The notes below the pieces were generated by a model. That model was not told the origin of the DNA. It saw only the letters and a program-made list of their open reading frames with translations, and searched no databases. A stretch of 64,000 nt of DNA from Bilabrum cf. latius (taxonomy: Eukaryota), in assembly GCA_965178125.1 (NCBI GenBank), contig OZ237742.1, positions 1,240,001-1,304,000 of the forward strand, given 5' to 3'. Positions 1-63,500 of the stretch are shown here, in pieces; position 1 is the stretch's first letter, and each line of letters begins with the position of its first letter. The position numbers were made by a program, and so were the translations under genes.

Positions 1-3000
1 GTCCAGGCCACGGGGAATCCCATGGTCAGCGAGTCTCGACCGCTTCCCATGTCCTCTTCCCGGTTCCGCAGCGGGTGGGAGGGGCGCCGCGCATCGGCCC
101 CGCGCGGGGAGCCCGGAGACTCAGACCCGCCCCGGTCATCACTCCGAGAATCGGAATCGGAATCGGAATCGGAATCGCTCCACTCGCCGTCGTCATCGCT
201 GCGGTCTGATGAATAGCTTCCGCGTCGGCCGCGGCTGTCCCTGCCTGTGCCTCTGCGGCTCCGGCTCCTTCTCCCCCTCCTCCTTCCTCTTCCTCTTCCT
301 CTGCTCCTGCTCCTTCTGTTTCTGTTCCTCCGTGCCACCCGGCCCCAGTCCCCGAAGCCTCCGCCCTCCCTCCCGTCCTCCAGCCGCATCCACCTCTCAC
401 GCCTGGACCGCATCCCTCCCGCAGACCTCGGGTCCTCCCCCTCTGCCCTCAGGCGGACCGCTGCAGTGGCGAAATGCCGCGCCACCAGGAGTGCCTCGAT
501 CTCGTTGAGGGGGAGACGGAGCGCCTGCAGGGCCGCGAGGAAGCTCCTGGAGGGCATCTCGCCAGTCTCCGCGGTGTCGTACAGCCGAAAGGTGGACTGA
601 ACCCTGACGTCATACCCTTCGTCTGCGGCCCGCATCAGTGAGGCATGCGATCGGAGCACGTCCGCGACCCGACTGACCTCTTCCTCGTCCAGCTCCACCA
701 GGCTGCACAGATCGTAGTACGACACGGCATCCCTGGGGCGGGCGCCTGAAGAGGAGGATCCAATCCCCCTCGCCCCTCTCCCCAGCCCGCTGTCCTCGTC
801 CTCACCGCCGTCAAAGTCCGTCCCAAAGCGCCTTTTGCCACCGTGCCGATCAGTGCCCTGGTCCCTTCGCCGCGGTGCAAACGACGCCCGCAATCCGAGG
901 CCACCGTCCTCCTCGTCCTCCTCCTCATCGTCGCCCTCCTCGTCCTTGCCGGAAGACCTGCCGCGACCGTTGCCCCTTCTGCCCTTCCCGCTTTCCTATT
1001 TCTACTCCCCTTTCTCCTCCTCGTCCTCCTCCCCACCGCTGGCACCATCCATCCAGTCGCCCTCACCACCACCACCACCAGCATCACCACCACCTCCCTT
1101 GCGCCAAGCCCCGCGCCTGGCCCCCCCGCGACCCGCACCATCCGGACCTCCGTCTTGATATTCATCACCACCTTCGATCCCCGGCCAGCCCCTTTCCTTT
1201 GCCTGCATCGCCAGGCGCGCCGCAAGGCGATCCACCTCCGCTGGTGTCATCTCCACGCCCAGCCTGCGCACGGCCCGGCCCAGCTCAGACCGCGAAAACC
1301 ATCCCTTGCCGGTGGGGTCCAGCTGCCGGAACGCGGCATGCACCACGAGGTCCGCGTGGCCCTGCGCCCACGAGGACTCCCTGAGGCGAGCACGGAGCAT
1401 CTGCTCCGCGGGAGACACCAGGCGCACTCCAGCGGCCCTGGCCTGGTCGCCCCCCAGCACCACCCGGAGGAACATCGAATAGTCCACCCGTCCGGAGCCG
1501 TCCACGAAGCAGCCCACGGCGGCCAGCATCAGGGAACAGTCCGCGGGCGTCATCGGCACGCCTAACACCGCCAGAGCGGCAGCAAGCTCAGACACCAAGA
1601 TCCGGCCCAGCCCCCGCGCAACGCCCTCCTGGTGTTGGACCCTCGGGTCGCTGGCCGTGTCGAACCTGGCGAGGGTCCTCAGGACCTCCCCTTGCTCGAG
1701 CCGGGGGTCCCCCAGCCCGGCCCTCACCCTGGCCGCCAACGCCAGCCCCCTGGCCTCGTCCTCTCCGCTTACCAGCAGCTGGCAGAACAGCAGGTAGTCC
1801 ACAGGTGCGTTGCGGCCAGCTGTTCTAGAGCGCCTTGCCCCACCCTTGCGCCCCTGTTCCCTTTCCTCCTCCTCCTCCTCTCTCTCCCCCAAATACGCCC
1901 GCACAGATGCAGCTCTCCTCAGCTCCTTCACTAGCAGCAGTCCGTCTCCGTGCCGCACCCCTAAAGCCCGCATCCTGCCCCTGACCAGCCGCAGAAAGAC
2001 CCTCGGCTGCACCGTTCCGTCGTCATCCAAGTCGTGGTCCGCGAACAGCACCTCCGGCCGCGCGGGGATGTGGCCACGTTCCCGGGCGCGAGCAAAGCGA
2101 CGGCGCAGGCGGTGCAGCAGCCTGCGGAACCTACCGGAAAGCGCGGCGCCGGCGCGGCTCAGCGCGTAATCTCGAGAGGAGCCGCCCCTGTGCCTGCCGC
2201 CCCGCCCTCGGCCGCGCGGCGACCCGCTGTACTCGGAATCGAAATCCGATTGACCCTCCTCTCCGTATGCGGAGCCATAGTCGTCGTCACCATTGTCATC
2301 ATAGTCCTCGTCATCGTCGAGTTCGTCATAGCTGTCATCGCCGAATCGTCCACCGTGATACCTGCCCCTGCCCCTGCCCCTGCCGCGCCCACCCTCGAAA
2401 TCGTCCTCCTCGTCAAAGCCCGCATCCTCCCCACCGTACTCACCCACCCCGACCAACTCTGCCACCTCCTGTCCCAGCGCACGAGCACCGCCCCCGATCC
2501 CCACCGCGGCGCGAAGCTGCCCCAGACCACCGCCGACTGGATCGCCGCGCCCCCGCGCAGAGACAGCCTCTCCCGCGCTCCGGAGCCCGCCACCTCGCGG
2601 TGGTTCCCTCGCTCCCACGGCCCTGCAGGCCCTGGACACACTCGTCACAGCGATGGCAGACACGAGCAGCCTGTCCCCGCCCTTCCCCCCGGGGCCCAGC
2701 AGGGGCACGGCAGTGGGAGGCAACACGGCAGGAACAGGCCTGTTGCCCCGTCCGCGTCTATGCCTGCGAGATGCCGAGGAGGCGCCGCGCAACACGTCCA
2801 TAAGCGGAACTTCCGCGCGCGCGGCAGGGGGGCTCCTACCCCTGGGCCTGCCGCCGGCGCCGCTCTCCTCCGCGACAGGGCTCAGCTCGATACAGAGGTA
2901 CGGCATGTCCTCGTTTCCACCCTCATCCTCATCCCCCCAGTCGACACCCGTATCCAGGTCCATCTCCTCATCTGTGTAATCGTCACCACGGCTGCCTCTA

Positions 3001-6000
3001 CGTCTGCGATGGGTTCTGCCGCGGCTACGATCCTGAGACTAGCCTCTGCCCCTGCCGCCGCGAGACATCGCACCGCCGCGACCGCGACCCGCCGCAGCGG
3101 CCCGCAGCGCCTCCCCCGCCGCTCGTCCCAAGGACCTGGGGTCCAGCCGCACGCTGGCCACGCTCGGGCCGTGAGATACGCCTGCCACCCATTCTGCGGA
3201 ACCGGCGCCGCGCAATCGGCCGCTCCTGCTCCGATCGCGGCCCTCCTGCTCCACGGACTCGCCCCCCAGCACGCGGAACTTTCCGAGACACGTCCCCGAG
3301 CCATCGCGCCGCTGGCCCCGCCCCCCGCCGCGGGGCCGCCCGCCCCTGCCTTGACTCCTTCTTGTTCTCCCGCGCCTTTCACTGCCCCCAGCAGACCCCA
3401 GTTCCCTCGCGCACTCGCTCAGTGGCCACAGCCGAGCAAACGACGGACCCCCGCACACGAGGTCAGATGCCCCCCCTGGCGCAGCGCCGCGACCACGCCC
3501 CTTCTTCCCCGGTATCCGCAGCGTGACCGTTGCCACCAGCCCCCCGGCCTCACCATGACCCGCCAGTTTGGCCAGTTTGGCTCCGTGGAGGGTCACCAGC
3601 ACCTCCATGGGACTTGATACAAGCGCACCAGCTGTGGCACGCCCGCCCGATGGGCCCACAGCGAGTGCACCCTCCAGCCCGGGAGACACCCTGACCCGGA
3701 ACGGCGAGCCGCCGAGGGCGCCTCCACGCCTATTTTTGCCCCTTCCCCGGTCACCGTCACCGTACAGACCGTCCTCGTCCCAGCCGTCCCCCTCGTCCTC
3801 CTCCTCGCCAGAGAAATCGCCCCGGTTACCTTCGCCCCTGCCACCGCGGCGCCCCCTTCGATTGCGGAACCTGCGACCGTCCTTTCCGTCCAAGTAGTCC
3901 CCATCCTCATCCTCATCCTCATCTTCGTACTCGTACTCTCCCCTCCCCCCGCCCCGTCCACCGCGCATGCGCCCTTGCCCCGCCCCCCTCCCGCCCAGCG
4001 TGGGCCTCGCCCCATCCGCCTCCGCCCCGAGCCTCCCTTGTTCCCCAGAGGCGATGGCCTGCTTCAGACCCACGGCTCGGCCCCCGCCCAGACCCGCCAG
4101 CCGCTGCCGCTGCGTGGCTCGGTCGGGGGGCAGTGCAGTCACCCAGAGGTACAGCCCCCTCGACCCCATGCCGGGGTCACCCAGCCCCTGCATGCCCGGG
4201 GTCCCCATCCCGGGGTCAGCGCGGCCAGCCCCAGACTCGTCCCGGCCGCTCTCACCGCTGCCCCCCCCGTCCCGGCGCCCCCTGGATCTGGATCGTGACG
4301 AGTGTGACGAGTGCTACCGCTCCGAGGGCGGCTGCCAGCCCCCGGCGCACGTCCACCTGTAGTTCTGCAGGGGCAGAAGGTCGCCAGCCGCGTACCTCCG
4401 GGGCCGCTGGGCACCGGGTGCCTGCTGCGGCTGGGGCCGCTTGGGAGGCATCATGTCGAAGGGAGGGGGCAGCGCGGGCGGCAGTGCCCCGCGCACCTGG
4501 GCCGCCTCCACCGCCACCCCCCTCTCTGCGGCCCTCCTGCCCTCGTGGGTCCTCGATGGCCTCTGGATCTGAGGGCCCGGGGTGCAGGCCACCTCCGTGA
4601 TGGCGTCGGCGGCGACACGCACCCACGCGGCGAGTTCCTCGGGGCTGGCGAACGTTCCTCGGCCCCCCGCAGCCGTCCTGCCACGCTCGCCGTCGTGCAC
4701 ACCACGGTCCCTGTCCCTGTCCCTGCTTCCCTGCTCGCCCAGCCTACCGAGAAGTGCGCGCATCCTCTCCCCTGCGCGCAGCACCCACAGCTGCCCGTGC
4801 CCGGGGATCCGGAGCCTAGCCTCGTACCCCTGTCGCTCCAGCTGCTCTGCGCCCCGCGAGTCGCCACCCCTTGCACCGCCACCACCACGGCCATCGGGGC
4901 TCACCGCCAGGCCCACGATCGCGTCCTCAGGGTGGGCCTCCCCGCCACTGGGACTCGTCTCTGCGTCCACGTCCCCGGAGACGCGGGCCGCCCCCGCCCG
5001 CAGCCGGGCGTACCTCGCCCATAGCTTGACGGGGTGCCTAGATGTGCCGTCACTGGCGTCCAGGTCGGGTGCACCGGGGACACCCTCCCCCGCGTCAATG
5101 ACCCCGCCCGGGGGTCCCTCACCGGCGCCCCCCCCCACACCTGCATGCTACAAGCCCATCCCCATTCCCATTCCGAGTCCTTGCCCTTGCGCGGGGTCCC
5201 ACGAGGCACCTGCGCCAGCGCCCAGCTGACCCTGGCCCTGCCCGTAGCCTGGCGGCAGCAGCTGCAGCGGAGCCCATCCCAGCCTCTTCATGTCCTCCTC
5301 ATCCTCCACCCTCCGTGTCCGCGCGATGTCCACCAGCACGGGATGCCTCGGCATCGTCGCGCTCTCCGCACTACCTCCATCCTCCAGCGCCCGCAAGGCA
5401 CCTCGGCCCCCCGGACCACCTCCAGCCCCGTCCCCTTCCTCGTCCAACAGGGGTACGGGGGGCGGCAGCTGGCCCCGTGCCCGCCCCGCGCCCGCCCGCA
5501 GAAACCTCACAAACTCGCTGGCAGACAGCTTGGCCGACCTGTCGGCATCGAAGCGGTTCATGATCGCCTTTGCTTCTCGCACAGTGACGGCCTGCAGCGC
5601 GCCGCCCCCCTCCTCTGCCAACCCGGCCTCCCTGAGCTGCCGCAGCACCCCGTTGACGTACTCTGCCAGCTCCACGGCGGTCACAGACCCAGAGCTGTCG
5701 GCGTCCATTTCTGCGAACGCGTCGTACGGGTGCACCCCCGACGCCACCAGCCTCTCCCCCAGCCAGCACGCCAGGTGCTCCACGCGCACCTGCACAGGGT
5801 CCACGAAGGCCTCGAAGTCTGCCGCCGTGACGAGGACCTCCCTGCCCATCCCAGAGCCCCCATCCCGTCGCAGCCGAGCAGAAGACCCCCTTGTTGCCTC
5901 CTCTGCGCCCCCTTCCTCCTCCTCTCCCCCCTCCTCGTCGATCGTGCCGATCCCGCTGCCGACAGCACCCCCCTTGGAGGACGAGAAGGAGGGGGCAGAG

Positions 6001-9000
6001 GCAGCCTGGGTGCTCGCCCCCGCAGCAGCGAGACCCCCCTGCCCCGCCAGCTCGAGGCACACGGCTCGGAGAAGGCGGTCCGGCAGGTTCCGCACGTCAA
6101 TGCGCGGCGCCGCATCTGCTGTTCCCTCGCCCATGCCCGGTCCTTGGTCGAAGGCGGAAGACGAGGCCGGCGGGGCTGCCATGGGCCCGCCAGAGCCACC
6201 ACCCTGCCCGGCGTCTTGCTGCTGCTGCAGCATCTCCCGGAGCAGCACGCGCACGTCGCTGGTGGTCAGGCACAGCTCGTTCCTCGAGAGCTCGTTGCGG
6301 CCCCGCCCGGAGGACGCGCTCGCGGCTCTACCCCTCCTGGAGCTCCGGTCGAATGCCTCCAGCGCCCGCCTCACCTCAGCCTCGTCGAACCGCATGCCCA
6401 TGGCCCGCCGGCATCGCCCCAGCGTGGCCAGAAAAAAGGCGCGCTGGTCAATCCCCCCGCCCGCACCAGAGCCAGGGCCCTTCCCGTGCTCGCGGCGGGC
6501 CCGTGTGACGAGTGCGGCCCGCAGGCGCACTACGGCGTCCAGCACGGCCTCCTCCTCCTTCTCGATCCCTTCCACCAGCTGCCGCAGCTGCTGCAGGTAC
6601 ACGTAGCCGTGCTCACCGATGCGCATCCGCTGGCACAAACCGTCCAGCTCACCGGGGGACAGCCGGAAGCCGAGGAGGGGCCCAAGCACCGCGGACTTGA
6701 ACTGTTCCCTGGTCACGTACCCCGTCTCCGCGGGGCTCTGCGAGTCGCCTGCCCCGGACCGCCCGCCCCCGTCCAAGTCGTCGCCGAATCTGCTGCCGTA
6801 GCTGCCGCCAGCGCCCGCCCCGCCTCGCTTCATGCCTCCCTACAGCCGGCGAGGGGCTGGCACGCCCCCGTCCCTGCCCCTGCCCCTGCCCACGCCTCGG
6901 TCGATCCCGCTCGATCTCCTGTCCTCCAGCCGGTCGGTCCCCCCCCTGCTGCCCCCAGCTGCTCCCGCGTACCCCCCGTAGAAAGCGGGGTCGAAGATGT
7001 CCTCGAGCTCGTAGCCCTGGGCGAACAGCTGCAGCAGACGCTGTGCCACGTCCCTCGTCAGCTCGTCCAGCTCTATGTCATCCAGAGACACGAACTTCCT
7101 GAACTCGTCGTAGCTGACCCTGCCGTCCCCCGAGGCGTCCACTCGCTCGAACAGAGCTCCAAAGTCCTTCGGTGCCAGCGACACCTTGAAGGGGGCTCCC
7201 CGGATCCCCTCCACGAACTCCTCGCGGGTCAGCCCCTCCCCCGCGACCTCTCTCACCTCCTGGTCCAGGTCGCGACCGCTCGCCTGCATGTGCGCGGCCG
7301 CGGCACCCAGCTCGCGCAGGTCGGCAGGCAGGGTCAGCGGCTCGCCCCTCCTCGACCTGGCCCGGGCACTCCCCCGCGCGCCCCCCCCACGGAGGGGACT
7401 GACCCCACCTTCACCCCCCGAAAACGGCCTGCCCCCGTGCCCCGCCCCAGGGGTCGCCATGGGCGTCCCCGGTCCGTCGCCCATGAAGGAGGGCAGCCGC
7501 GCCAGGCTGCCAGAGGCGTGGGACGCAACACCAGCACCAGCACCAGCACCGGCACCGGCACCGGCGGACCCGCCTGCTCCCCTGCCGCCGTTTCCTCCCG
7601 CCCCGCTCAGTGCCCCCAGTGCGTTCTGCGCGATCATCAGGTACACCAGCCTCAGATCCAGCACGCGGCCCGTGTCCGGGTGGGAGGCTGCCGCCCGGAT
7701 GCGCTGCCTGAGCCTGGCCTCGACGTCAAGGATGGTGGCCTGCTGCCTCGCCTCCACCTCCCCCGCTGCGCCGTCGTCCGCGTAGGATGCCTTCCTATAC
7801 CATAATAGCACGCTACTCCCCAGGGCCCCCTTGTTGAAGTTGCCCGGCATGCGCTTGAAGCCCCTCTGCGGCAAGAGCGCCTTCTCGTCAGTCGTGAGCA
7901 CGACGTCCAGCACCGGCTGCGCTCCCCTGCCCGATTCGCCCACGCGCCGGACCCAAAGAAACTGCCGCGGGGCCGTCATGTTGCCCCCATTGACGTCCAC
8001 GGGACACACCTCCCACCCGTCGGCAGACAGTGCGGCATCCGCGCTCTCCCCGAAGAGGCAGAGGTCAGTCACTGCCCGCCGCATTGCCGCCCTCCGTCGC
8101 TTCTCGTCTTTCACGTCGCACAGTCTCAGGACATACAGGTGCATCGCGTGGCCCTGGTTCATCCTTCCGCTGTTGAGGCTCACTGGGAGCTTCTTGTACC
8201 CCAGCTGCACCAGCCGGTCGCACCTGCTCTGCGCGCTCTCGAGCTCAACCTGCACGTCTACCACGGGCGCCACGTCTGCGGCCGCGACGCCTCCCCTGCC
8301 CGCGGCTCCGGCGCCTTGCCCCTCCCCCCCGCTGCCACCCCCCATCAGGTCCTCTGCCTGGGCCTGGAGGAAGGCGGCGAATTCGTCCACCGACACGAAG
8401 CCGTTCCCGTCGGCATCCAGCAGCTGCATCATGGCGTCGGCTTCCCCATCCGAGAGCGTCAGCCCGCACAGCTTTCGCGTGGCTGCCTTCAGGTCCTCCT
8501 TGTCCAGCTTGTCAGGGTCTGCGCTCCTGTCCCGCGGCCCGAACCAGCCGGCCCCGCCCTCGCCCTTCCTGAGCTCTTCGAGCGTGTTGCGAAACACGGT
8601 CGGGAAGTCCTGCACCTGGTAGAACTGCGTGAGTACCTGCTGCCGCAGCAACAGTGCCACCTGTCGCACTTCCTGGCTGTCGAATGCGACGTACGAAATG
8701 AACTCGGACCAAGCGATATCTCCGCTGCCATCCAGGTCCAAGCGAAGCGCCAGCTCGTCTAGCTGTTCTGCAGACAGCCTGTGCAGCCCCGGCAGGGATC
8801 TGACAGCCCTTTTGAATTCTTCCAGCGTAAGCGTGCCACTTCGGTCGGAATCGAACTCTGCAAGAGTTGAAAGCGTTCAGTCGCCAACAGCAACTCGGTG
8901 AGCAGGGCCCAACAGCGGCAAGAAGGGCACCGGGCGGCTCATGCACAAGCATGTTGCATGATCATGATGCATTGATACATTGCATGATTGTCTCACCTTG

Positions 9001-9165
9001 GAATTTCTTTTGAATCAGTTCAACAAGCTGAGCATCTGTTTTCACAGGTTTTCCGTTGGAGTCTTTCGCACTCTGTCTTATTTGTTGGCGGATCGTCCCG
9101 CTCGCAAGCGAAACATGATCAGCACCGTCAGCGCCTCCAATGGCTGGCCCACCCGAAGCGGCCAT
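1..9165 (-). CDS. Giant multi-EF-hand calcium-binding protein with MABP (beta-prism) domain and a possible C2-like segment; 3' end runs off the window (about 3,000 aa visible)
   Basis: ATG at 9165, intron 8858-8996 (GTGAGA...CAG) joins KFQ-E-FDSDRSGTLTLEEF. ORFs 6840-8741, 5148-6833, 4314-5138, 3039-4208 and 1002-2963 share one frame, separated only by TAG (6840, 5148, 4314, 3039, 1002, 996); the frame stays open towards position 1. EF-hand loops include DLDGSGDIAWSEF, DADGNGFVSVDEF, DASGDGRVSYDEF, DADSSGSVTAVEL and DPTGKGWFSRSEL. MABP-like repeats: GYKKLPVSLNSG, GWEVCPVDVNGG, GFKRMPGNFNKG...LWYRK. Confidence 0.85.
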
Positions 9166-9315
9166 GTTGATTCTGAAAACGAGACCCCAACGTTTCGTGA
9201 ACGTTGGCCCCGACTCGGCGAACCTTCACGAAGGATCCGATTCAGAGACGTTGGCGGAGCCGAGGTGGAACCAAACGTAGCTGTAGCCTACCACGTGCCA
9301 AGGGCAAGCGCTACA

Positions 9316-12300
9316 ATGCAGGCGTCGAGTAGATCAGGAGTTACAACTCGTTCAAGGGCCAAGCGCTCGCGGACCTAGATCACGGAGACGCCGCCAGCCC
9401 TGCGTCGGTCGAGGCGGCGGGCTGGGGCGCGAAAGGAATCCGGGACCGCATCTGCTGCAGAGTCCGGCGCAGAGGGATCCAGGCGCCAAGGTAGAAGCAG
9501 AAAGACATACAAAGCTTCCGACAGCCCGCCTTCCAAGCTCGTTCGGGTGAGCGCTTCCCCGACTGGCAAAGCAGCTGGAGGAGCAGGTGCCGGATCGAAG
9601 GCAGGGAAAAAGCAGCAATAGAAGACAAAAAGAACCGCTCTTGGAGACGCAGATTCATCTATGAATGCAAGCGGGGCTGCCTCCCACTACCAGCAGGATC
9701 AAAGCGAAGACATGCGCGTTCAGACTAGGGTTCGGGTGGTGCGCGCTAGGCCTGCGAAATCCGCCGGCACCGCTGGGGCGTCTGTACCCGCTGGCAGAGC
9801 AACCAGCCGGACTAGAACAGAATCAAGCAAGACCAAGAAACCGGCTGTTTCGGGCACGGCTTCGGCAGCTCCCGCGGAACCGCCGGCCGCAACGGTGGCA
9901 TCCGCATGTCCCTCGCAGCAGCGAGCGCGAGCAGCTGCTCGGTCTTCCGCCCAGAGGAAGCGAGCAGCGGCACCGTCCGCCGCCTCGGCGGTACGGTCAG
10001 GCCGTCACGCCAGCTTCAAGATCTCCTCCGGCCCCGCACGCCGAGCCCGGGGCAGGGCAGGGCCGGGGCACCCAGGCACGCAGCAGACCCCGTCCAACCG
10101 AGCAGCAGGCGGCGCCGCGCCGGGTTCCGCAACCTCGGCATCATCGGCCGCATCGGCTGCATCGGCTGCATCCTCCTCTTCCTCCTCTTCCTCCTCCCGG
10201 CTGCTGCAGCCCACCGCCTCAAGCGCCGCGCGGCGGTCTGCCATCCGAGCCCGGTCTCAGTCCCGGGGGGCCGCTTCCTCCAAGCGACCGGTCTCCATGG
10301 GTGGCACTGGGGGGTCGGGAGCAGGGAAAGGCGGCAGGGCCCGTAGCAGGGCTCATGCGAGGACGTCTGTGGGCGGGAGAGGTGTGACGAGTGCGAAGCA
10401 GGAGCAGAGGCAGCAGGCCGCGGGAGCGTCGTCGTCGTCCTCGTCGTCGTCCTCGGCAGCAGCCGCCCCGGTGGCAGCGACAGGCGATTCCATCACGTCT
10501 CCAGGCGCCGCCCGCCGGCTGGCGGCCTCCATGTCCTCGGCACGGCGGAGCGGTGTGACGAGCGCGGGAGGTCGCGGTGCAGCGGGCCGCACGTCGATCC
10601 GGTCCGCCTCCCGCTCACGGGGAGTGGGGGCACGAGGGGGGAGGTCCGCGAGCAGGTCCCGGGGTGGTGTGACGAGTGTTGGTGCTGCTGGTGTGACGAG
10701 TGCAAGCCGCGTGTCGATCCGGGGGTCTCCTGGCCAGCGGCGCCGGCAGCAGCAGCGGCTGTCGATCCTCAAGGCGGCCTTCTCACCCGCCGGCAGCCTG
10801 CGGCGCGGCAAGCACGTGCGGATGCTGCTCACGAGCAAGATCAAGGAGGCGAGACTGGCTCTGGAGGCGGGCGACCTCCGAGCGGCTCGGGCTGTGTACG
10901 AGGGCCTGCCTGCCGAGCTGCCCGAATGCAGGGGCAAGGCCCTCTACTGGCTGGGCTGGTCCCGCATGGAGGAGGGCGAGGGCCGGCTGCAGGAGGCCGC
11001 CGAGCTGCTGTCCAAGGGGCTGGCGCTGTGCCGGTGTGACGAGTGGGAGCACGACTGCCTCACGCAGGGAGCCACCCAGTTCGCCAGGCGGATGGCCTCT
11101 TCCTCTTCTTCTTCCTTCTCCTCGTCTTCTTCATCGTCCCAGGGCCAGTCAGCGGCTGCAACCGCCAAGGCGCTCGTGGAGAAGGCCGTGCAGGAGGAAG
11201 AGGAAGAGGACGGGCAGGAGGAAGAGGAAGAGGAAGAGGACGGGCAGGAGCAGGGACAGGAAAAAGGACAAGGTCAAGGGGAGCACTCGCCTGCGCCCGG
11301 CAAGTCCCCCGCCGCCCGCCGGCTGGACGAGACGCTGGCAAGGGCGAGGGGCCGGCTGGACAGCCTCAGAGACGTGAGCGACGGGCCGGCGCCGCGCACT
11401 CCCAGGCAAGTTCCGCAATCGGTCGGAGAGGGAGTGCAAGGCAACAGCCCCAGCCAAGGTGCAGCCAAGGTGACAGGCGAGGAAAAGGAGGAGGAATCTG
11501 AGGCGGAATCTGAGGAGGAGGAGGAGGAGGAGGAGGAGGAGGCAGCCACTGGCACCGAGTCAGCGGATGGAGGGGCTGCCTCCTCTACCGACCTGGCGTC
11601 CCCACAGCCCATGCAGCTGACTGCGTCCACTCGAAAGGCACTGCGGAGCCGCAGCGGTGGCAAGCCGTTCGCGATGCGCGGCGCCGCTGACCCGGCGACC
11701 CCTCCAGTTCCGCCGGCCATGGGATCGGACCAGGATCAGGGTGATGACGCGGAGGTATCTCCGCAGCTGCAGCTGGCACGGACGCAGCTGCTGCCCCCCG
11801 AGCTGCCAAGCGAGGAGGAGGAGATGGGTGCAAGCACTGCGCGGCAGCTCTTTTCGGGCGGACAGGCGGCCATGCAGGACGGGGAGGATGTAGGAGCAGA
11901 AGGGGGCGAGGACGGGGACGGGGACGAGGGCGGGCGCGCTGCCGGGAACGGCGCGCTGCCACGCCTCTCGCCCGCAGCCGCGGACGGGCCCGGCTCGCCC
12001 GCGCTGCCCCGACTGAGCGCAGCATCGGCCGCGCTGCTCGCGGGGACGGGGACCCCGGGGATGGTGGGGGGGGAATACCCCCCCCGCCTACGCCTGAGGC
12101 TCGGCGGGGTCGCGGGCGACGAGAACTGCCGGAGGGCAGCCGAGGCTGCGGTGGCTGACCTGGCCGGCGACTTCATCGCGGGGGGCGACTCGCTGGACAG
12201 CACGGCCAACACGAGCGGCACTGGCGGCGCGAGAGGTTCCGCAATGGACGCGGCGCCGCGCGACGACGCCTCGCTGGAGGAGCTGGGCCAATTCGCTGAG

Positions 12301-13713
12301 GAGGACGCGGACATGGGGCCCGTGGGGAGGTATGAGGGGTTCACGGATGACACGGCGGACTGGCCGTTTGGGGGGGCCGGAGCAGGCGAGGGCGAGGACG
12401 GTGATGGAGTCTGGGCGGCCGGTGGAGCGCGGGACGGAGCTCACGGGTCCGGGCGGGGAGCGGCCAGCGGAACCATCCGGGACGGCGCCGCGGCGCCCGT
12501 GCCGGACTCCGCGGGGAGCGGCAGCAGCGGCCGAGGAGGCAGAGGAGGAGGCTCAATGTCTAGTGCGCTGGCAGGGGGCTCTGCGTCCGCCCGAGCGTTG
12601 TCATCGGGGGCGGGCGGCCACGCCCGTGTGCCGCCCTCGCCGGCGCTGCCCACGGCCAGGCGGCTGGGGAACAGCGGGCACGGGGTGGTGGTGCAGCAGC
12701 CGCTGGGATCCGTGGTGGTGCTGCAGCAGGTGAGCGTGCGGCCCTCAACGGCAGAGGCCCTCGGGTCTGCCTGGGCCGTGTCTCCGGTCCGACGGTCTTT
12801 GCGAGTGGTGCAGGGGCACGGCGGGGGGGGGCAGGAGAGGATGCACGACGGAGACAAGGAAGGAGAGGAGGGCAATGAGGAGGAGGAGGAGGAGGAGGAG
12901 GACGAGAATTTCCCAGTGGCCCGGCTGTTCCGCCCGGCCCGCCTCGAAGACGTGGACTACGCCTTCCTGCCCAATAGTGCGGTGGCTGGCATGCACGCGG
13001 GTGTCATCGCGCCGACGGGAACGTCCGCGCTCACACGGAGCGCGGCGAGAGCCATCAATGGTGGCAACGAGCGGAGGAACAAGAGGCAGGAGCAGGGGCA
13101 GCAGCAACGCAGGCTGTGCGCCACGGCGCGCAAGGCCGGTGCGCAAGGCATCGCAGCGGCCGGCACCCCTCGCGCGAGGACGAGGCCAGGGGGGCTGCTT
13201 CTCCAGCGGTCGCAGCAGCAGGCTCTGACCCCCGGCGCTGGTGCTGGGGCCGGGGCCGGGGCTGTAGCAGCGCGACCCCGAGTGCCAATGACCGCGGCAC
13301 CGGCGGGTGCTGGCGCAGGCGCGGTCGTGAGCCGGTCCCGTCTCCCGCTGGGGGGCGCGCCCGGCTCGGGAGCTGCATCTGGGCGCGAGAGACGGGCCCT
13401 TGACTTCGGGGGGGATGGGGGCCGAGGGAACAGCGAAGGTGACGGCGATGAGGCGGGGGGCAGCGGGCCCGTGGGATATGCTGCGGCTCTGCAGGCGGCC
13501 ATGGATCGGAGGGAACAGCGCAAGCCCAGGTTCATGGGGGGCCGCAGGGGGCTGGCGGGGGCCTTGAGGAACAGCAGCATCGGCGGCGGCGGTGGTGTGA
13601 CGAGTGGCGGGAAGGTGGCTGCGGCGGGACCGCAAGGGGCCAAGGGGCTGAGCGCAGGGGCTGGGGCTGTCGGGACGAGCGCGTTCCAGCCGCAGGCGCG
13701 TGCGGGGCTGTGA
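9316..13713 (+). CDS. Large low-complexity protein (1465 aa) with CKAP2/CKAP2L C-terminal-like motifs; putative microtubule/spindle-associated protein
   Basis: Listed ORF 9661-13713 extends in frame to ATG 9316 through two TAGs (9376; 9619 in the context CAG CAA TAG) and ends in TGA. Motifs LPECRGKALYWLGWSRME, VSPVRRSLR and YAFLPNSAV resemble CKAP2_C (KYW..LA, TPVRRS.R, PN.AL). Family call is from motif recall only. Confidence 0.6.
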
Positions 13714-14106
13714 CCTGGGCTCAGCTAACCTGGGAGGCGCTGGTGTGAGCACGGGCATGGGCATGGGCATGGGCATGGGTTCGGGTTTGTGGCTGTGTGA
13801 ACTGAACGGTGAGTGGTTTTTGCAAACTGGATAGATCTAGCGACAGCTAGATGTTAGCTCGTTGCAACCGACCAGTCCAGCATGAGTCCAGAGTATCCTA
13901 TCCGGTCTAGACCAAGGGCCCTCCAAGCTCGAGCTTGCCACGAGGCAGGGAGGACAGATCAACTGGTCAATGAAGGCCCCAGATCCGGAGCCGACATCAC
14001 TCATCCGGAGTCGATACGCGGCTGGCCCCCGGCGCGCCGGATGCCACAACTAGCACCCAGTCAAGCCAAGCAACCGCGCTCGAGAGCAAAAGCAAGGACT
14101 AAAGCC

Positions 14107-28034: not shown

Positions 28035-28132
28035 GTCCTAACTTGTGGTAAAATGGTCGGAAACGAATGTCGTGGATCCGGAGCAACAAGTGTACTAGGA
28101 ACAAGGCTCCACTGGCTCCAATTCGGACCAAA

Positions 28133-50257: not shown

Positions 50258-50670
50258 ACCACAAGCTGGGCTGCTCCTCGGTGGGGGGGGCTGCGCTGCT
50301 CGCTATCACACCATTTTTCTATCACTGCTTTCCAACACCCGTGCCTCAGCCGGCCAAAAAAACAAAAAACTCGGGAGAGCGCCCCGGTCCGAGCCCAACT
50401 TCCGGCTCAGGTGCCAAGCTGCACCCGAGCCTAGAAGTCCGCTCTGGCGCGATCTCTGAAATAGGGGCAAACCCAGTTTAAACATTAAAATATTCGGCTT
50501 GGGCAAAGTTGCCTCGTGCCGAGCCAAACTTACGGCTCGGGCACGGCCGCCGTCTGCCACAGCCCAAAGTTCCGCTGCGGCGCCGCGGCGCGCGCCGCCG
50601 GAGTCACCATTCAGCTGACGGCCCACCCACTTGTCTCGAACCGATTTCTGCTGTCTAAATAAGCCAACAG

Positions 50671-53600: not shown

Positions 53601-54714
53601 GGAATCCAGCACCACAGCTGGTGAGGTGGGTGTCCTTTCGGTAGTGGCGCAGGGGCAGCAGGACTGGCAGCAGGCACCGACAGACCGCGCATCTGGAGAC
53701 ACCCTCTCCGTCCGCCTGTGGAACACGAGGGGCCTTGACGAGGAGATTGTGTCTCTGGGCGCCGTGTCGGAGCTGGTGCGCCACGCTTACGTGCTGAACG
53801 GGAGCGAGGTCCTGCTGATCTCGTTCACAGACCTGGACGACGAAGGGCAGGACGAGCTGATCCGGGTGGACATAGCGAACGGCGGGTAGCAGACCCGCAT
53901 CACCTGCCCCAGCACCTCGCTGCCGTTCCTTTCGGGGCCCAAGATGAACCGGGTCGGGAACGAAGGAGTATGCTGGGTGCCCGCTGCAGCCGAGTACAAC
54001 GAAATTGACCAGCACCTGGTGTGCTACTTCAAGGGCAGGGACGCGTGTGACATCTTTGACTTCGCCAGCACAGAGTCCATCGATGGGTCGCAGCCCTTCG
54101 GGACCATCCCTGTGGCGGACCCTGATGACGTCACCTTTGCGATGGTGACCCTCGCAAATGAACCCAGGATGCTGATGGAGCCGGTGGTCATGGCAGTGGT
54201 GCCCCCAGTGCCCGTGGCACTGCCTTCCCCGACCCCCAGCACCACAGCTAGCCCTACCCCCAGCACCAGCGCTAGCCCGACCCCCAGCACCACAGCTAGC
54301 CCGACCCCCAGCACCACAGCTAGCCCGACCCCCAGCACCACAGCTAGCCCTACCCCCAGCACCAGCGCTAGCCCGACCCCCAGCACCTCGTCGGCAGACA
54401 CTGGGGGTGCAGTCACCCAGCCGTCTCCCAGCTCTACAGCCACCAACGGAACGGTCGGGGACCTACTCACTCAGGACACCACAGTCGAGGACGACGACAG
54501 CCTGGGAATTGGTACTGTCGTTGGGATTGCGATTGGTTCTGCCATCCTATCGGCCATCGTGACGGGTATGTGCTGTCTGTTTGGCATGTGTTCGTGCGGG
54601 CGCACCCGCTCCACGAAGGAGAAGGAGAATGAGAAGGACTTGGGGAGGGCGGTCGACGTTGGGCCTCAAGCAAAGGCGAGCACAGGGCAGCCAGCGGGGG
54701 CAGAGGCTGTGTGA
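50671..54714 (+). CDS. Type I cell-surface protein, 1347 aa: signal peptide, beta-rich repeat ectodomain (ELWxxDGT-like), mucin-like PTS stalk, TM helix, Cys-rich juxtamembrane tail
   Basis: ORFs 50671-50856, 50872-53313, 53344-53889 and 53944-54714 share one frame joined by three TAGs; ends in TGA. Recurrent DAELYWVD / WHEIYFWGG / DEQIFYFDG / GADLVVWD / QDELIRVD motifs. TM IGTVVGIAIGSAILSAIVTGMCCLF. Confidence 0.85.
54226..54387 (+). repeat. Coding 24-bp tandem repeat (SPTPSTTA / SPTPSTSA, ~6.5 units)
   Basis: AGCCCGACCCCCAGCACCACAGCT units visible directly. Confidence 0.95.
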
Positions 54715-56584: not shown

Positions 56585-59500
56585 TCACGCGTTGGCTCCA
56601 CCCCCGACACCCCTGGTCCTCCTGAGTACCTGGCTCTCGTGCCCCACAGTGGCATCCCCGGGCCGAAGCACGGGGGCCTCCTGCACCAGGTCGAGAAAGG
56701 CAGCCCCGGACACCTGCCGCCCCTGCCAGTTGGCCCCGACGGCACCGCTTGCCGCTACCGCCTGCAGCTGCGCGCGGCTGAGGGCCCGCAGCATCCCGGT
56801 CCCGTCGTCCGCCCCCAGCTACGGCGCAGCGGCACGGCCCGCCACCCGCGGCACGACCTGGCCGTGGCCTCGCACCAGCACCACGGTGCCCCCCTCCATA
56901 GGGTGCAGCTGATCCGCAGGCACCGTCCCCGCCGGCCCCAGCCCCGCCTCCAGCCGCCCCGAGAGCGCGTGCGCAAGCGCCGCCGCCTGCGTGGCGGGCG
57001 GGCGCACCCACCCCGCCTGTAGCGCCCTTGTCTCCGCCCGCCGACTCAAAGACAGCTGCCTGCTGATGGGCCGGGAGCCAGTGCCCGCCATCACCTCGGG
57101 CCCAGCCAGCGCCTCCCGGCCCGGCCCCTGCAGCGGCGGGACCAGCATCCTGAGGCCCGGCATGTGGGCCATACGCCCGTCCTGCAGCATGTACCCCACC
57201 CGTGGATCGGCCGACCGTGCCGTCACATCAAAACCGGGCTGGTCGATGGACTCGGCTTCGAAACCACTCAACGAACCGCTGCCCATGTCCAAGCCAGGGG
57301 TCGCCAAAGTCCTGCTAGCAGAAGCCCCCGCAGCTCCTTTGGCCTCCTCAACCTCTGCTCCAATGCCTCGGCCCCCTGCCGTCCATTCGAGCTGCAGCTG
57401 CCTGGGTGCACGCACCGTGCTGCGACCGTCCTCGCCCGGCCCTGCCTGCAGCTGCAGCACCATGCTCCCCTCCCTACCCGCGCTGCCCCTCTCCATCCCC
57501 GGGGTGGGCCTTCCCTTCCGGTGCGCCCCGCCGTGCAGCACGTGCTCTGGCTCCTGGAGCCGAAGCACCAGAGGCCCCACCGAATGGGTCAGTCGCCCGG
57601 GGGTCCGCGGGTCCACACCGGCGGCAGAGCCCGCCCACGCCTCCCTAGGCAAGAGGGCTCGGTCCATGGCAGCCTGTGCCTCGTCACCGCGGGGGAAAGC
57701 TGCGGGGGCGGCGCCCACGTCCCGGCGCACCTCCACCCGCCAGAACGACCCCGCTGACGGCGCGATGTTCCTCTGCAGGAAGGCCTTGTAGTGCCCGTTA
57801 CACGCGCGCCCCTGGGGCGTGGGGAACATCAGCACGTGCAGCCTCCTCCTCCCCGACGATTTCTTGCACAGGTCCCCGATGCAGCCAGCGGCCGCAGTGG
57901 GCCTGGCCAGGGCCCGCGGCCTCGCGTCCAGGAGGAACCCCCCGAGCTGCGAGGGAACAACCAGGGAACAACGGGTGTTCCACTCGGCGCCCATGGCCAG
58001 CAGCATGGCCCAGGCAAGGAACTCGACGTGGGTCGAGTCGGGCAGGACCAGCCGACGGGTGCGGCCCAGCATCGGGTCGTGGCATATGCACTCCACCGGT
58101 GGATTGAACTCACGCCAGCGCAGGAGGCTGTCCCTGTCCAGCAAGCCCACCGCCGAGGAGGCCGCCAGTTTGGACGTGTGTGACACGAAGGGCGTCTGGT
58201 CCACCCCGGGCACTGGCCCGCTGCCACTGCTGCTGCTGCTGCTGCCTGGGCGGTTCGATGAGGACGAGGATGAGGGCAAGGAAGGCGCACCGGCGGGTCC
58301 TGCCAGTCCCCCCACGGTGCTGGACGGCACGTCTTTGGCCACCCTCAGGCTGGGCGCCAGGCTCAGAGAGGAGGACCTCAGCACCAGCGGGCCCTTGGGC
58401 ACCTTGGCCAGCCGGGGCTCTGCTGATGGGTCACTATCTGTGCCCCGGTGCTGGTGCTGGTGCTGGGAGCCTGTGTTGGGCTTTCCTGCATTTGGCGTCT
58501 CTGTGTCCGTCCTGGGCGCAGCTCCCATGCTGCTGCGCTTGCCTCCTCCGTGCACTGCTGCCGCACCACCGCGCGATGCACCCCCGGCACCACTGGCCCC
58601 GTGAGTGCTCCGCCTCCTGCTCGCGCGCCTCCGTCCGTGCCCGGGACCCGGCTCGGGCAGCCTCTCCGGGCTTGATCCGAAGGCGTTCCCGATGAGTTCT
58701 TCCAGGGCGTGCGAGGCTGCGTCGGGCAGCTGGGCCGCGGCCTCCTGCGTGCTGGGCGCCTCCGCCCCGCCCAGCCGGGACTTGGGGCGCGCACTCGTCA
58801 CACCAGCGCGCGACGGCACATTCGCCCCGTTCTCCATTCCCTTCTCCGATTCCCCCCCTCCCGGTCCAGTTGCAGCCACCTTGCTGCCCTTGCTCGAGCG
58901 GCGCCTCCCACCTGTCCCGCCTGTCCGGTCCTTGCCTTTGCTCTCGTCCTCGTCCTTGTCATCGTCCTGCAAATCCTCCGGGACGGGCACCCCCAGCACA
59001 CGCGCGAGGCCCACCAATCCCAGGCCAGCCGCCTTGGCCTGCTCCATCGCTGCCTTCACCTACTCGGGACCTGGGGGCACCCTGCTGCCGCCGGTACCAC
59101 TTTCACCCACACCAGCTGAAGCGCCTCCCTCGTTCCCCGATGCTTTCGACTCCGAGTCCCCTAGAACCCCCCCACCCCCCTCCGCCAGCCGCCGCTGCAC
59201 CGCCCTCGCCACCCCTGCCGCCAGCCGCGCCCTGGCGGCATCCCTCTGTTCCCTCCTCGCCTGCGCCGCCTCCTGGTCCTCGTCCACCGCCACGAAGGAG
59301 CCAGCCGCTGCGTGACCCGCCGCGCGGGCCCCCGACCGGTCGAAGGCCGCCACACCCGCGTGCCTCCCGAAGGTGGTCTTGATCCTGCCCCCCGGGGACC
59401 AGCAGGCGGGGCAGCCCACCTCTCCCGTCCCGCAGATCTGGCAGCCCTCCCGCGCCCACAGGGGCCAGTCGGGGCGGGGCGCGGCCGCGGCGGCCGCCTG

Positions 59501-59992
59501 CTGCTCGGCGTCTCGGGCGGCCCGGGCTGCATCCAGTTTGGATTCGGAATCGAGGACCCTGCTCGCCGCGATCGACGAGGCGCCAAGGGTGCTGGCACCC
59601 TGGGAAGCCCGGCGGGAGGCAGGGGCGCCGATGGCAGAGCCTTGCGCACCAGCCGCGATCGGAGGCAGCGCCTATAACCTGTCGTTAGATGTAGCGTCTC
59701 CTTTTGCGACTGGCGAAACGTGGGAGGGCAGAGGCCCGGGAGTTGCCGCAGATCCGTTGATAGCTTCAATCGCTTGCAGCTGCTGCCGGAAACCCCCTTC
59801 TACCGGCATACCGCTAGCTGCCGCCATGCGAGCCTTTCGTCTGAGTGCTTGCAGTTTCCGAAGCCTTTTGTCCCTCTGCCGTCGCTTCTCTTTCTTGGCA
59901 GCCTCCGCAGTTGCAGTCGTCTCCTTGGGATCAGTCTGACCTTCTGCCTGGTGGCCACGAGAAGCGGCCCGACTGCTGGCACCATTCTCCAT
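56585..59992 (-). CDS. Hypothetical protein, 1135 aa, low-complexity, with a CxxC-x5-CxxC motif
   Basis: ORFs 59672-60058, 59060-59419, 56819-59059 and 56585-56794 share one frame joined by three TAGs; ATG 59992, ends in TGA. CQICGTGEVGCPAC motif. Confidence 0.75.
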
Positions 59993-60545
59993 GGCCACAG
60001 AAGCCTTACGAGCACAAAGAATCGAACATGAAATCCTAGTGGGAGGGTTGCGACCCACGAAGCTGAAAATCAGAACTCGACAGTTGCGTGTACCAAGACA
60101 CTGCCATGTAGACCGGACAAGATCGGGCTCATTTTGGCGGCTCTCATCAACGATTTGCTAATAGCTGAGCTGAAACCGTCGAAACTATTCAGTTTAGTTT
60201 CAGCAGACTCGCGTAGCTGTCCCCAAGAGCCTTGTTGAGTGAGATTCGGCCCAGCAAGCTTTTTCGTCGATTGAGGCAGTCAACACGGGAATCCCGCCAC
60301 CAGCGGAGCCCTCAGAGTACCACCAGACCAGTGCATCCCGCTGCAGGAGAGAGCACTAATTAGTAAATATCCAGCTCTCGTGAAAGGGCCTATCGACGGC
60401 ATTTTCACTCCAGGGATTCCGCTGTAGAGATTCGGTCCACCGTTGCGTGGCACCCGAGCTCTGCACTGCCGGATCCAGCCTGAATTTATTCAGTCATACC
60501 AACAGAGCTGGAAGTTCCCCCCCGCTCATATTGGTGGTGCGAGCT

Positions 60546-63500
60546 ATGGAGGCGGAAGATAGGGTAGTGGGGATCAGCTAGTCTCAGCTCGGTAAACTCG
60601 GTGAGGCGGGGCACGTTGCCCCGCTTGGAAGCAGTCACGAAGAGTCAGCGAGTACAGAGCTAATAAGAAGACAAATTAGGCGAGCAAGCTGCTCATTTGT
60701 AGAAGCGTGGAAGGGACAGGAACTAGAATTGCCAAATGTGCCCGCTGATCTTGAGCAAGAGGTTCGCGCTGCAGAACGCGCCGCTGCAGCCGCAGCGAAA
60801 GCGACAAATGCTCCCGCCACACAGCCCAAAGATGCTACAAGGATGGAAACAGCACTGGATGGTGAAGGGTGGGCGCGCGTGGCCGCTGCCTGGGTGCTCG
60901 TGCTCGCCTCATCTCGTGCGCAGGCGGCCATGCTGGCGGCCAGGCATGCCGTGGCCACGGGCGAGCTTGCGACCGGCCAAGCGCCCTCCATTGAGGCGGG
61001 GACGCGCACGGGCGCCCTCCTCCTCGCCCTGCGAGCCGCCACACACTGCCTGCCCTCCCCCTCACCGGAGCAAGCAGCCGTGGAGGCCGAGTGGAGGCGC
61101 ATCGATCGAGCAGGTGGGGAAGGAGGGGCAGCAGGAGGAAGACTCGCTACCCAAGAGCGGCGGCGGGTCCTTGGTGCAGTGGTGGATCTCTGCGGAACCG
61201 GATTGGCGCCGCGCATGAGTGCAGGCGATGCGGTGTGCGCCAAGCAGCGGCCCGGCAGCAGGGGCAGGCCGGGGCTCTCGAGGGTCGCCAGGCTCTCTGC
61301 GAGCGCCAGCGGGCAGGTGCTCCGAGCGCCGCTGTAGCATCTGCTCGGTGGCGGGGGCGAGCACGGAGAAGGGTGGATCGGTGGCGCCGGTGGGGGAGAG
61401 AGCGTGACGAATGCGCTGCTGGCATCGGGCGGGTACTCGCAGGCAGTGGTGCTGCGGGAGTGCGTGTCGGCTTCAGGGAACAAGGGCAGGGGCGCAGCCG
61501 TGCACTCGTCACGCGGTGCGGTGTCTCCGCATGGCCTGTCCCGGCTGCCCCCAGGGGAACTTGCGCTCGCCAGGGGGTGGCAGGCAGGCTCTCCGCTGGC
61601 GGTGGGGCGCAGTGGTGGTGGGGGGGCAGGTGCGTGGGGAGCGCAATCATCGTCTTCGGCCGGGTCTGAGTTTTTGAATTCCTCCTCTTCTTCATCTTCC
61701 TCCTCCTCCGCCTCCGCAAGGGGCGTGGTGCTGGCAGGGAATCCGCTGGGCCGCGTGGATGCGCGTCGGTGGCTTTGGGGGCGGGTCGGGGCGGCCACAC
61801 TGAGCGAGGAACAGGAGGACGCGGCGGGGCTTCGGCGGCAGGCGGGGCTGCTGCTGATGGAAGACCGGCGGAGGGAGGGGCAGGAGGGCAGTGCAGGGAA
61901 CAAGGGCCACAGTGTCCCGGGTGGTGGAGATGCAGGTCAGGCCGGGTCGGAGCGTCGCATGGGGCAGCTGGCAGACCGGCGCGAGCTGGTGTCCATCTCA
62001 CTGGGAGCAGTGCTGGGAGCTGGCAGGCCTGGGCATGGAGACGTCGGGCCGGGGGGTTGGTGGGAGCGTGCTCTGCGCGCGTGTGACGAGTGCGGGGTCT
62101 GGAGCGCCATGCACCGATTGCTTGAGCTGGGTGGCTGGGGACTGTCACGGCGAAAGTTGAAAGCAATCGACTCGCCGAGCGGTGGGGGCAAGGGAGGGCG
62201 CGCCCATTCTACCACTGCCGGTACTGTTGGCAGCGCGGGCCAGCCGGGCGCTGCCAACTCGGCGTCAATCCCCGAAGCCAAGCACGGCAGCCGAGGAGAG
62301 CCCGCCTCGCCCCCCAGGGGTAGCTTGCGCCGCAGCAGCGGGAGGACGCCCAAGCGGTCCCCTCGCGCGCGGTCCGGGACTGGCAGCACCCCTTCCCCTT
62401 CATCGTCCTCGTCTTCAAGCAGCGGCAGTAGTGGCACCCAGGGCACAGGGGCAGACACGGCCGGCAGCAACGGGTCCAAACCACCGGTGGATCGCGCGCC
62501 TTCCCAGCAGCAGCTCCACGAGCTGGAGCCTAGTCCGGCAGAGACCGTGGCCATGCTGCGAAAAGGGCCCGCGCTAGGGGTGCTTCCTTTCTTTGGTCTG
62601 TGCGCCGCGAGTGCGACCTGCCTGGGGCAGGCCCAGCAGCTGGCCGGGGTGCCTCGAGGACCCGGCTCCGAGGCGTTCCCCGGGCTGTTCTCCGTGCAGG
62701 TGTGCTGGCCCGAGCTGCGAAGTGCAGAGGAGCAAGTAGCTCTGCTGGAAGTGGCCCGCGAGTTCGTGCTGGGGCGGGAGGGCATGGGGAAGAAACTGCC
62801 GAGGGGCACCGAGCTGCAGGGCACCGAGCAGCAGGGCAATGGGGAGCTGCTGGGCGCGATTGGGGCTCAGTTGGACCGTGTGGCCGGGAAGATCCTCAGG
62901 AGTGCAGTGCCTCAGGGGTGGGACGGGCGCGCCAGCGGGCCAGGAGCGTCCGTGGATCTTGCGGCCGGCCTTTGGGTCTCACCAGGCCATGGCTTTGGGA
63001 CAGGGCCAGGGACAGGGACAGGGACAGGTGCCGTGTCTGCCGCTCCCTTGGTTGACCGGCGCATGGTGAGGAGGAGGTATCGGGCGAGGCAGTGCCTGTC
63101 TCGGTGGGTGCACCGGAGGGCGCGCGGGCGGGGTGCATCAGCGACCCACGTTGTGGACTAGGGCCAGAGCCAGGATCAGGATCAGGGCCAGGGCTAGAGC
63201 CAGAGCACACCGCTGCTGCAGCCGTCGATCTCCAGCGATGTGGTCGAGCCACAGGAGGGCGACGAGGTCGATCGATCACACTCGATCTCGGCGGAGATGT
63301 CCTCGGACAGCGACGGCGTGGAGTCAGAGTCGGGGAGCGACGCGGATGCCCTTGAGGCGGACCAGGCCGACGACTCGGCCCGCCGCAGGTCCCTGCAGCT
63401 GGCGAGGGCCATGGCGCGGCGGCAGGCAGCCGAGTAGGCAGAGCAACGCAATGCGATGCACCCTTGGGTGCGAGCAGGTAGAGCCGCAGATACCGCCCAT

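Follow-up and report, generated by a model that had tools for sequence, protein, structure and literature searches.

Twelve exact copies of one 12-base word, GTGTGACGAGTG, nine on the + strand and three on the − strand, are scattered through the protein-coding DNA of a 64-kb stretch of the genome of Bilabrum cf. latius (contig OZ237742.1; the whole 64-kb stretch is hereafter the window). The number of copies exceeds every null that we applied, including one that preserves each encoded protein, and the same word recurs in metagenome contigs of an apparent relative. In a eukaryotic nucleus it is unusual for an exact 12-mer to recur about once per 5 kb of coding DNA; in the portions of the literature that were available we found no description of GTGTGACGAGTG, and the string occurs there in papers on unrelated topics. 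The explanation that we place first, tentatively and short of calling it probable, is that GTGTGACGAGTG is a genome word peculiar to this lineage, maintained by selection or molecular drive in the probable role of a recognition site for a protein, and that it also seeds short tandem duplications.

The exact word is in large excess

In 100 dinucleotide-preserving shuffles of the window the exact word occurred 0.03 times on average and at most once, so that none reached 12 copies, and a third-order Markov model gave an expectation of 0.01. Once simple repeats are set aside, GTGTGACGAGTG is the top-ranking 12-mer of the window. The initial annotation had proposed that the count be compared with a codon-preserving null, and we ran such a test: when synonymous codons were shuffled inside each open reading frame (ORF), which preserves every protein and the codon usage of each gene, the word occurred 0.162 times on average with a maximum of 2, and 12 copies were reached in 0 of 2000 shuffles.

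The excess is concentrated on the exact word. All 12 perfect copies reported by the initial annotation were found again at their positions, and near-matches bring the total to 17 with up to one mismatch (0.29 expected) and to 25 with up to two (5.73 expected). The mismatch classes 0, 1 and 2 thus hold 12, 5 and 8 sites, a sharp peak at the exact word. Trimming the word to 9-mers at either end adds few sites (14–17 occurrences versus 12 for the 12-mer), and the 60 bases on either side of the copies show no relatedness between copies. The word starts and ends with GTG, so that it has the form of a 9-base unit with a 3-base redundancy (GTG...GTG); there are 93 GTG-N6-GTG sites in the window, and 12 of them contain TGACGA. 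It is not palindromic (its reverse complement is CACTCGTCACAC) and in this respect does not resemble a word of the HIP1 (highly iterated palindrome) type.

All 17 exact and near copies lie within five ORFs, A to E, each of low complexity and each delimited with TAG read as a sense codon (see below). ORF A (1..8876, − strand, at least 2958 codons), which encodes an EF-hand protein, carries two exact antisense copies, at 4302..4313 (+), reading HSSH, and at 6503..6514 (+), reading ALVTR, together with a one-mismatch copy (position 1 of the word) at 2639..2650 (−). The first of these is the only one of the 12 exact copies longer than 1.33 units: with the preceding bases 4296-4301 it forms GTGACGAGTGTGACGAGTG at 4296-4313, or 2.1 units of the 9-base period. 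In ORF B (8968..13713, +, 1581 codons), which contains one conserved block, exact sense copies in the GVTS frame lie on the + strand at 10382..10393, at 10667..10702 (two copies, with starts at 10667 and 10691, 24 bases apart) and at 13595..13606, joined by a one-mismatch copy (position 11) in the same frame at 10553..10564 (+); a further exact sense copy, at 11034..11045 (+) within the conserved block, is in a second frame (CDEW). ORF C (28164..40037, +, 3957 codons) has exact antisense copies reading HSSH at 35940..35951 (−) and 36984..36995 (−), an exact sense copy in the GVTS frame between them at 36436..36447 (+), and one-mismatch copies at 29803..29814 (+, position 12, reading GVTSP) and 34550..34561 (+, position 3). 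The exact copy in ORF D (56585..60193, −, 1202 codons) is at 58792..58803 (−), sense and in the GVTS frame, and that in ORF E (60384..64000, +, at least 1205 codons, running off the end of the window) is at 62081..62092 (+), sense and reading CDEC, with a one-mismatch copy (position 2) at 61503..61514 (−).

The copies are clustered, with five adjacent gaps of 600 bases or less versus 1.19 expected (P = 0.0016), and they occupy the most GC-rich DNA of the window: GC content within 500 bases either side of the copies was 0.695 versus 0.637, and none of 20,000 random draws reached 0.695. Orientation, which in a polar word of the Chi or KOPS type follows the replication direction, is + for 10 of 11 exact and near copies before 35 kb and for 2 of 6 after it, a pattern that gene orientation would also fit.

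The unit is DNA, with a preferred frame

The tripeptide VTS occurs 10 times in the 16,781 codons of the window ORFs, and 8 of the 10 are encoded GTG-ACG-AGT, from codons with family shares of 0.60, 0.34 and 0.08 (AGT is the rarest serine codon, at 8%). A selected peptide would use synonymous codons, yet these eight are identical, and thus we conclude that the unit is the DNA and not the peptide. The translations given in the initial annotation (GVTS, CDE, HSSH and LVT, with two frames in one gene and both strands in another) were all confirmed, and the exact codon identity, the use of rare codons and the codon null uphold both of the arguments built on them, namely that protein-level selection cannot explain the word and that it is a DNA-level signal of the HIP1, Chi or uptake-sequence kind.

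For frame and strand the window was pooled with 18 related metagenome loci (described below), and copies on one strand that followed each other within 150 bases were counted as a single event. The pooled set holds 42 events, 38 of them inside ORFs of at least 250 codons, where the frame that places TGA in phase is not scorable because ORFs are bounded at TGA. Both strands and five frames are in use. However, the description of the word as frame-independent was an overstatement, since 23 of the 38 in-ORF events (61%) share the one sense frame that reads (G)VTS, versus 20% expected (P = 5e-8). Sense orientation accounts for 27 of the 38, versus the 40% that equal use of the five stop-free frames would give (P = 1e-4). 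The remaining 11 are antisense and equally exact, and four of the 42 events lie outside ORFs.

Host genes and the use of TAG

The in-frame stops that interrupt the large ORFs of the window are all TAG. With TAG taken as a sense codon, long ORFs that do not overlap tile the window; nothing comparable results when TGA or TAA is taken as sense instead. ORF A then contains six in-frame TAG and no TGA or TAA, and ORF C 25 in-frame TAG and no TGA; examples on the − strand are at 6840-6842, 5148-5150, 4314-4316 and 3039-3041. The orthologue P0131 aligns straight through the TAG at 6840-6842, and the RPS3 exon at 18650-18790 carries one in the context FV-TAG-DGVFYAELNEFL. The related metagenome loci behave in the same way: with TAG as sense the longest ORF reaches 2708 codons in L099 (526 otherwise), 1784 in L023 (377) and 1722 in L014 (372), and no such growth was seen in the Ga0136560 loci with TGA or TAA as sense. 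In-frame TAG was seen at L014, L023, L037, L099, L113 and L119, in ORFs that encode SMC (14 TAG), HECT (30 TAG), TPR and hydrolase proteins. These alignments and ORF lengths indicate that TAG is a sense codon in this lineage and that TGA and TAA are its stops.

The amino acid is likely glutamine, as in NCBI translation table 15, on the basis of one conserved column: a TAG in the reverse transcriptase (RT) of the long interspersed nuclear element (LINE) of the window aligns to the Q of the QG..SP..F motif in a solved R2 protein. Three TAG positions in the L037 hydrolase are uninformative on this point, as solved homologues carry A/E, K/Y and G/D there. No tRNA was found in the window. By its STT3 protein (55-58% identical to named oomycetes and ochrophytes, 85% to a metagenome protein) the organism groups with stramenopiles; in the portions of the literature available to our search, no such nuclear code was found in a stramenopile.

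The initial annotation had placed the word in five unrelated genes. Five hosts it is, although the gene models behind that statement need revision: with TAG as sense the hosts become giant ORFs of 1202 to 3957 codons. STT3, RPS3, the DFRP and SRCR genes, the LINE and the ORF at 50659-54714 are all free of exact and near copies.

Runs of two studies carry the same sequence

Thirteen public runs contain part of window positions 4000-13999, and their Logan contigs were compared with the window. Contigs of run X4 on 332-3892, 3963-7520, 7574-11091 and 12913-13741 show 0 differences, and between them they span eight exact copies and two near ones. It is possible that the window was assembled from the X4 sample; X5 comes from a different study and is independent of X4. 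An X5 contig on 6048-6740 bridges the copy at 6503, again with 0 differences, and another on 4281-5077 includes the copy at 4302, 21 bases in from one end of the contig. The word is therefore neither an adapter nor an assembly artefact, since runs of two studies carry its copies without a difference.

Joints in the contigs of X5 and X9 evidence two introns, at 17881-18261 (−) and 18494-18649 (+), which are canonical (GTGAG...CAG) and AT-richer than the exons. The intron-skipping joint in X5 (17880 to 18262) is accompanied by very uneven depth; that X5 and X9 are RNA runs is a guess, with no RNA run on record. An intron signal was rejected as the source of the word, as both joint-supported introns are of the ordinary GTGAG...CAG form and unrelated to GTGTGACGAGTG. 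STT3 probably has an intron near 22700, because its main frame is without the STT3 N-terminal part.

The word recurs in related metagenome loci

A scan of metagenome contigs, in which two copies of GTGTGACGAGTG within 30 bases were required, returned at least 120 loci. Among the matches listed, the majority contain the string only incidentally, as unrelated minisatellites or bacterial-type heptamer hairpins, and in viral contigs the scan pattern found two loci against one for a shuffled control word, which shows that such pairs arise by chance in very large collections. Evidence is limited here to 16 loci of metagenome Ga0136560 and to L039, L061 and L072, among the matches listed.

The 16 Ga0136560 loci contain 55 exact copies in 97 kb, in both orientations and with unrelated flanks, and beyond the pairs by which they were ascertained they also hold single copies. 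The mismatch classes 0, 1 and 2 are 55, 9 and 11, and the copies are dispersed and clustered as in the window. Immediately outside the word a soft preference is seen in the window and Ga0136560 loci together, with G at −1 in 26 of 44, C at +1 in 25 of 44 and T at −2 in 17 of 44; the trend in the window alone agrees. From these features the Ga0136560 organism appears to be a relative that shares the word, its flanks and the TAG-sense code with the organism of the window. L039 and L061, from another metagenome, resemble the Ga0136560 loci. L072 and L119, 99.8% identical, form the sole orthologous pair among the TAG-sense loci and are uninformative.

In the related loci the word is also the common core of short arrays with spacings of 14, 15, 17, 18, 21, 22, 24, 27, 41 and 42 bases, arrays that were ascertained by the scan pattern itself. 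The spacing is a multiple of three in 15 of 16 arrays in ORFs versus 1 of 4 outside ORFs, which suggests that duplications of word plus spacer occur everywhere and are filtered by the reading frame.

Two further groups of contigs came out of the scan. In soil-type contigs (L004, L010, L036, L041, L044, L046, L060, L063, L066, L069, L077, L084, L090 and L093) the 12-mer arises by overlap within repeats of the 7-base unit GTGACGN, often with an inverted partner nearby; these repeats look like bacterial intergenic hairpins, and are a separate phenomenon with a common string. An AT-richer contig family (GC 0.45-0.56, pairs 66-99% alike, including L001, L029, L031, L033, L034, L049, L064, L079, L095, L097, L098, L108 and L110) carries minisatellites of the GTGACGAGTG / GGTGACAA type adjoining a conserved unit and has the look of repeats from an animal or protist host.

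Two alignable copies arose without length change

Two copies, at 6503 and 11034, could be aligned to orthologues, which were compared as protein. P0131 is 60% identical to the window over 154 residues, with no gap across the copy at 6503, where the window reads RLRAALVTRARREH and P0131 reads RLRKALVERGLREH (ALVTR versus ALVER). P0128 is 40% identical over 104 residues and is likewise without a gap across the copy at 11034, where ALCRCDEWEHDCL in the window faces AACRQHPVEHDCV (CRCDEWEHDC versus CRQHPVEHDC, with QHPV in place of CDEW). Because an insertion of 9 or 12 bases would have left a gap of three or four residues, the word occupies pre-existing positions at both informative copies, which thus arose in place. 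P0128 contains no VTS, which indicates that the six copies in ORF B are gains in the lineage of the window. The orthologue searches behind these comparisons returned 13 matches for the ORF at 5151-6839, of which only P0131 spans a copy, one weak match (P0128) for ORF B, and no relative for the ORF at 34896-37613.

Mobile elements and other features of the window

A dispersed repeat or miniature inverted-repeat transposable element was considered as the source of the word and rejected, as self-BLAST of the window gave two local duplications only, neither involving it. Terminal inverted repeats and consistent target-site duplications were absent from the copies in the window. The single LINE of the window (− strand, 45930-50700) is an apparently intact non-long-terminal-repeat retrotransposon whose ORF (46155-50321, −) runs to 1388 codons, 10 of them in-frame TAG; its product has an N-terminus resembling an endonuclease, contains an RVT_1 domain and aligns to an R2 protein. 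The 3′ end of the element, near 45930-45960, is (TGTATTTC)n, and the word was therefore rejected as the tail of this LINE. Tblastn of the LINE protein found no RT in any of the 120 loci listed. The window has no Rfam match at the gathering score and no runs of TTAGGG or TTTAGGG.

The remaining large ORFs are at 40507-45918 (−, 1803 codons) and 50659-54714 (+, 1351 codons). Near the C-terminus of the latter a 24-base unit repeated 6.7 times (54228-54387) encodes a PTPSTTAS-type repeat. A tandem duplication at 13758-15478 / 15483-17192 (1.7 kb, 98% identity) copies the 3′ part of a DFRP-like gene. The X4 contigs have zero depth at 14008-14674 and include a variant contig on 15483-16567, so that one copy of the duplication may be an assembly or strain difference. 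Downstream of STT3, a second local duplication at 25001-25979 / 27027-28044 (about 1 kb, 91% identity) carries (CGGCAAGAAGGG)n in both copies, and the repeat (GTAACAAGGGTG) occurs 6.5 times at 26102-26179.

What may keep the word in place

Under the explanation that we favour, GTGTGACGAGTG, together with its soft preference for G at −1 and C at +1, would be a DNA-level unit that is created and kept in place, neither a piece of a mobile element nor a selected peptide. It would most likely be the recognition site of a putative sequence-specific DNA-binding or DNA-processing protein, and exact copies would be promoted by weak selection or by a form of molecular drive, for example a bias in repair or conversion. 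Copies would persist where the protein tolerates the word, mostly in the GC-rich disordered parts of giant proteins and in the (G)VTS frame, and an established copy would often be duplicated locally with a short spacer. We infer both the protein that reads the word and the selection or drive that maintains it.

Several observations weigh against this explanation. Relatives with two mismatches number 8 versus about 5.4 expected, which is near chance, and the intermediates needed by gradual selection are few. None of the 12 window copies lies outside ORFs, even though non-coding DNA is the easiest place for a DNA site; this point is weak and not significant, because ORFs span 81.5% of the window. 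The strong sense-strand and frame bias would also suit a role at the RNA level. The evidence for in-place origin comes from two copies compared at the protein level at 40-60% identity, and insertion could still account for the majority of copies, those in low-complexity DNA. Finally, any factor that recognizes the word is putative.

The alternative that survives best, although we consider it unlikely, is that short patches of DNA are overwritten from a word-bearing template with no change in length, either through a template switch during replication to a copy close by, with the terminal GTGs as anchors, or through an RT that carries a fixed RNA template. In that case the word would be no signal but a by-product, mutational or selfish. 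The GTG at both ends and the 12 of 93 GTG-N6-GTG sites filled with TGACGA fit such a process, as do the local clusters in direct and inverted orientation and the ratios of exact to one-mismatch copies, which imply young copies in both organisms. The sequence at 4296-4313, which continues the word with a 9-base period, keeps template copying alive as a reading. At 11034 four consecutive residues differ from P0128 between conserved flanks, as a rewritten patch should; however, such a run is unremarkable at 40% identity, and at 6503 only one of five residues differs from P0131. The template itself was not found, short-range template switching leaves the spread over five genes, 58 kb and two organisms unexplained, and the soft flank preference is not expected from GTG anchoring alone.

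An element acting in RNA is an improbable alternative. Here the sense word in mRNAs of giant proteins would be read by an RNA-binding protein or a small RNA, and antisense copies would be by-products. The excess of sense events (27 of 38) is what it predicts, and the X5 contig that covers 6503 unchanged would come from RNA if the joints and uneven depth of that run, which resemble an RNA run, are so read; this assignment is the guess noted above. Tolerated peptides account for the sense bias as well, and the 11 equally exact antisense events, the four events outside ORFs and the lack of an Rfam match in the window speak against it.

We likewise think it improbable that the word is a minisatellite core or hotspot motif that promotes breaks and unequal exchange, seeds arrays and raises GC through biased gene conversion. 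It is indeed the core of arrays with many spacings (14-42 bases) at different loci, though in arrays chosen by a scan pattern that required two copies within 30 bases; the multiple-of-three spacings in ORFs and the location of copies in the most GC-rich DNA also fit. Hotspot motifs, however, are expected to be eroded and not enriched, and the likeness to the recombination motifs M26 and PRDM9 is putative.

The initial annotation had listed a telomerase-like or repair-templated insertion scar among the possible origins, and we regard this as decidedly improbable. Breaks would receive a 9- or 12-base unit through telomerase-like healing, through abortive target-primed reverse transcription or as the footprint of a transposon, and the unit, its length being a multiple of three, would be tolerated in frame; the telomerase version would imply a chromosome-end repeat (GTGTGACGA)n. 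The 9-base unit with its 3-base redundancy does resemble the product of a telomerase template, one copy extends to 2.1 units, the copies are exact and an intact LINE is present in the window. Yet neither of the two alignable copies shows a change in length, only one of 12 exceeds 1.33 units, and the copies have no target-site duplications or terminal inverted repeats and are not palindromic; the LINE ends in another repeat, and no RT was found in the related loci among the matches listed. An adapter, primer or polishing artefact, or a compositional accident, is scarcely credible and as far as the contigs show already refuted, given the identical contigs from runs of two studies, the word in contigs of an unrelated metagenome project and the failure of every null to reach the count.

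Relation to known genome words

Exact DNA-level oligomers that are indifferent to the encoded protein are a classic bacterial phenomenon, and the known bacterial words each led to a mechanism, be it uptake receptors, RecBCD, methylation or repair. A comparable case in the nucleus of a eukaryote, found in relatives and arising in place, would point to a sequence-specific DNA transaction new to protists. Possible, though we would not call it likely, is that GTGTGACGAGTG is a eukaryotic counterpart of the uptake- and Chi-type words of bacteria: a self-favouring 12-mer written by point changes into the coding DNA of a TAG-sense protist lineage, the exact word being preferred by a repair or conversion bias or by a DNA-binding protein that marks 'self', with giant proteins reshaped as a side effect. 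A DNA-level force would then be seen writing peptides (GVTS) into proteins. The word is in addition a handle for experiments, and together with the TAG-sense code it makes a simple metagenome marker of the lineage.

Among eukaryotic motifs, the fission-yeast M26 hotspot (ATGACGT, the M26/CRE heptamer) works inside an ORF and in either orientation, and both it and the window word contain TGACG. The human minisatellite core and the PRDM9 13-mer are similar in that the window word, too, is the short core of arrays with differing unit length. These motifs and M26 are degenerate, however, and are not enriched as exact single copies, whereas the window word is. Telomere-like heptamer repeats occur in coding regions of Eimeria, and interstitial telomeric insertions occur in vertebrates; the Eimeria heptamers are, like the window word, a short DNA-level motif in protist coding DNA that is read in several frames. 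Both of these cases are insertions, consisting of tandem runs of the organism's own telomere repeat, in contrast to single 12-mers without length change at the two copies that could be aligned.

In behaviour the closest known systems seem to be the bacterial uptake sequences, with Chi and HIP1 next. HIP1 is an octamer and a palindrome; Chi, which RecBCD reads, has an orientation that follows replication. Like both, the window word is short and exact and is kept as DNA throughout coding sequence, whatever protein results, and it differs from HIP1 in not being a palindrome. The uptake signal sequence (USS) of Haemophilus and the DNA uptake sequence (DUS) of Neisseria have an exact core of 9-12 bases with weaker flank preferences and many more perfect than one-mismatch copies; these copies occur in both orientations, many inside genes in less conserved parts and preferred frames, and arise by substitution. 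The window word differs from them in lying in a eukaryotic nucleus, which is not known to have competence or a machinery for uptake, and in occurring at about one copy per 5 kb in clusters and not as inverted pairs behind genes. It is like USS and DUS in having an exact core that is over-represented on both strands with weaker flanks, and in its low-complexity hosts, its preferred frame and its apparent origin in place at both alignable copies.

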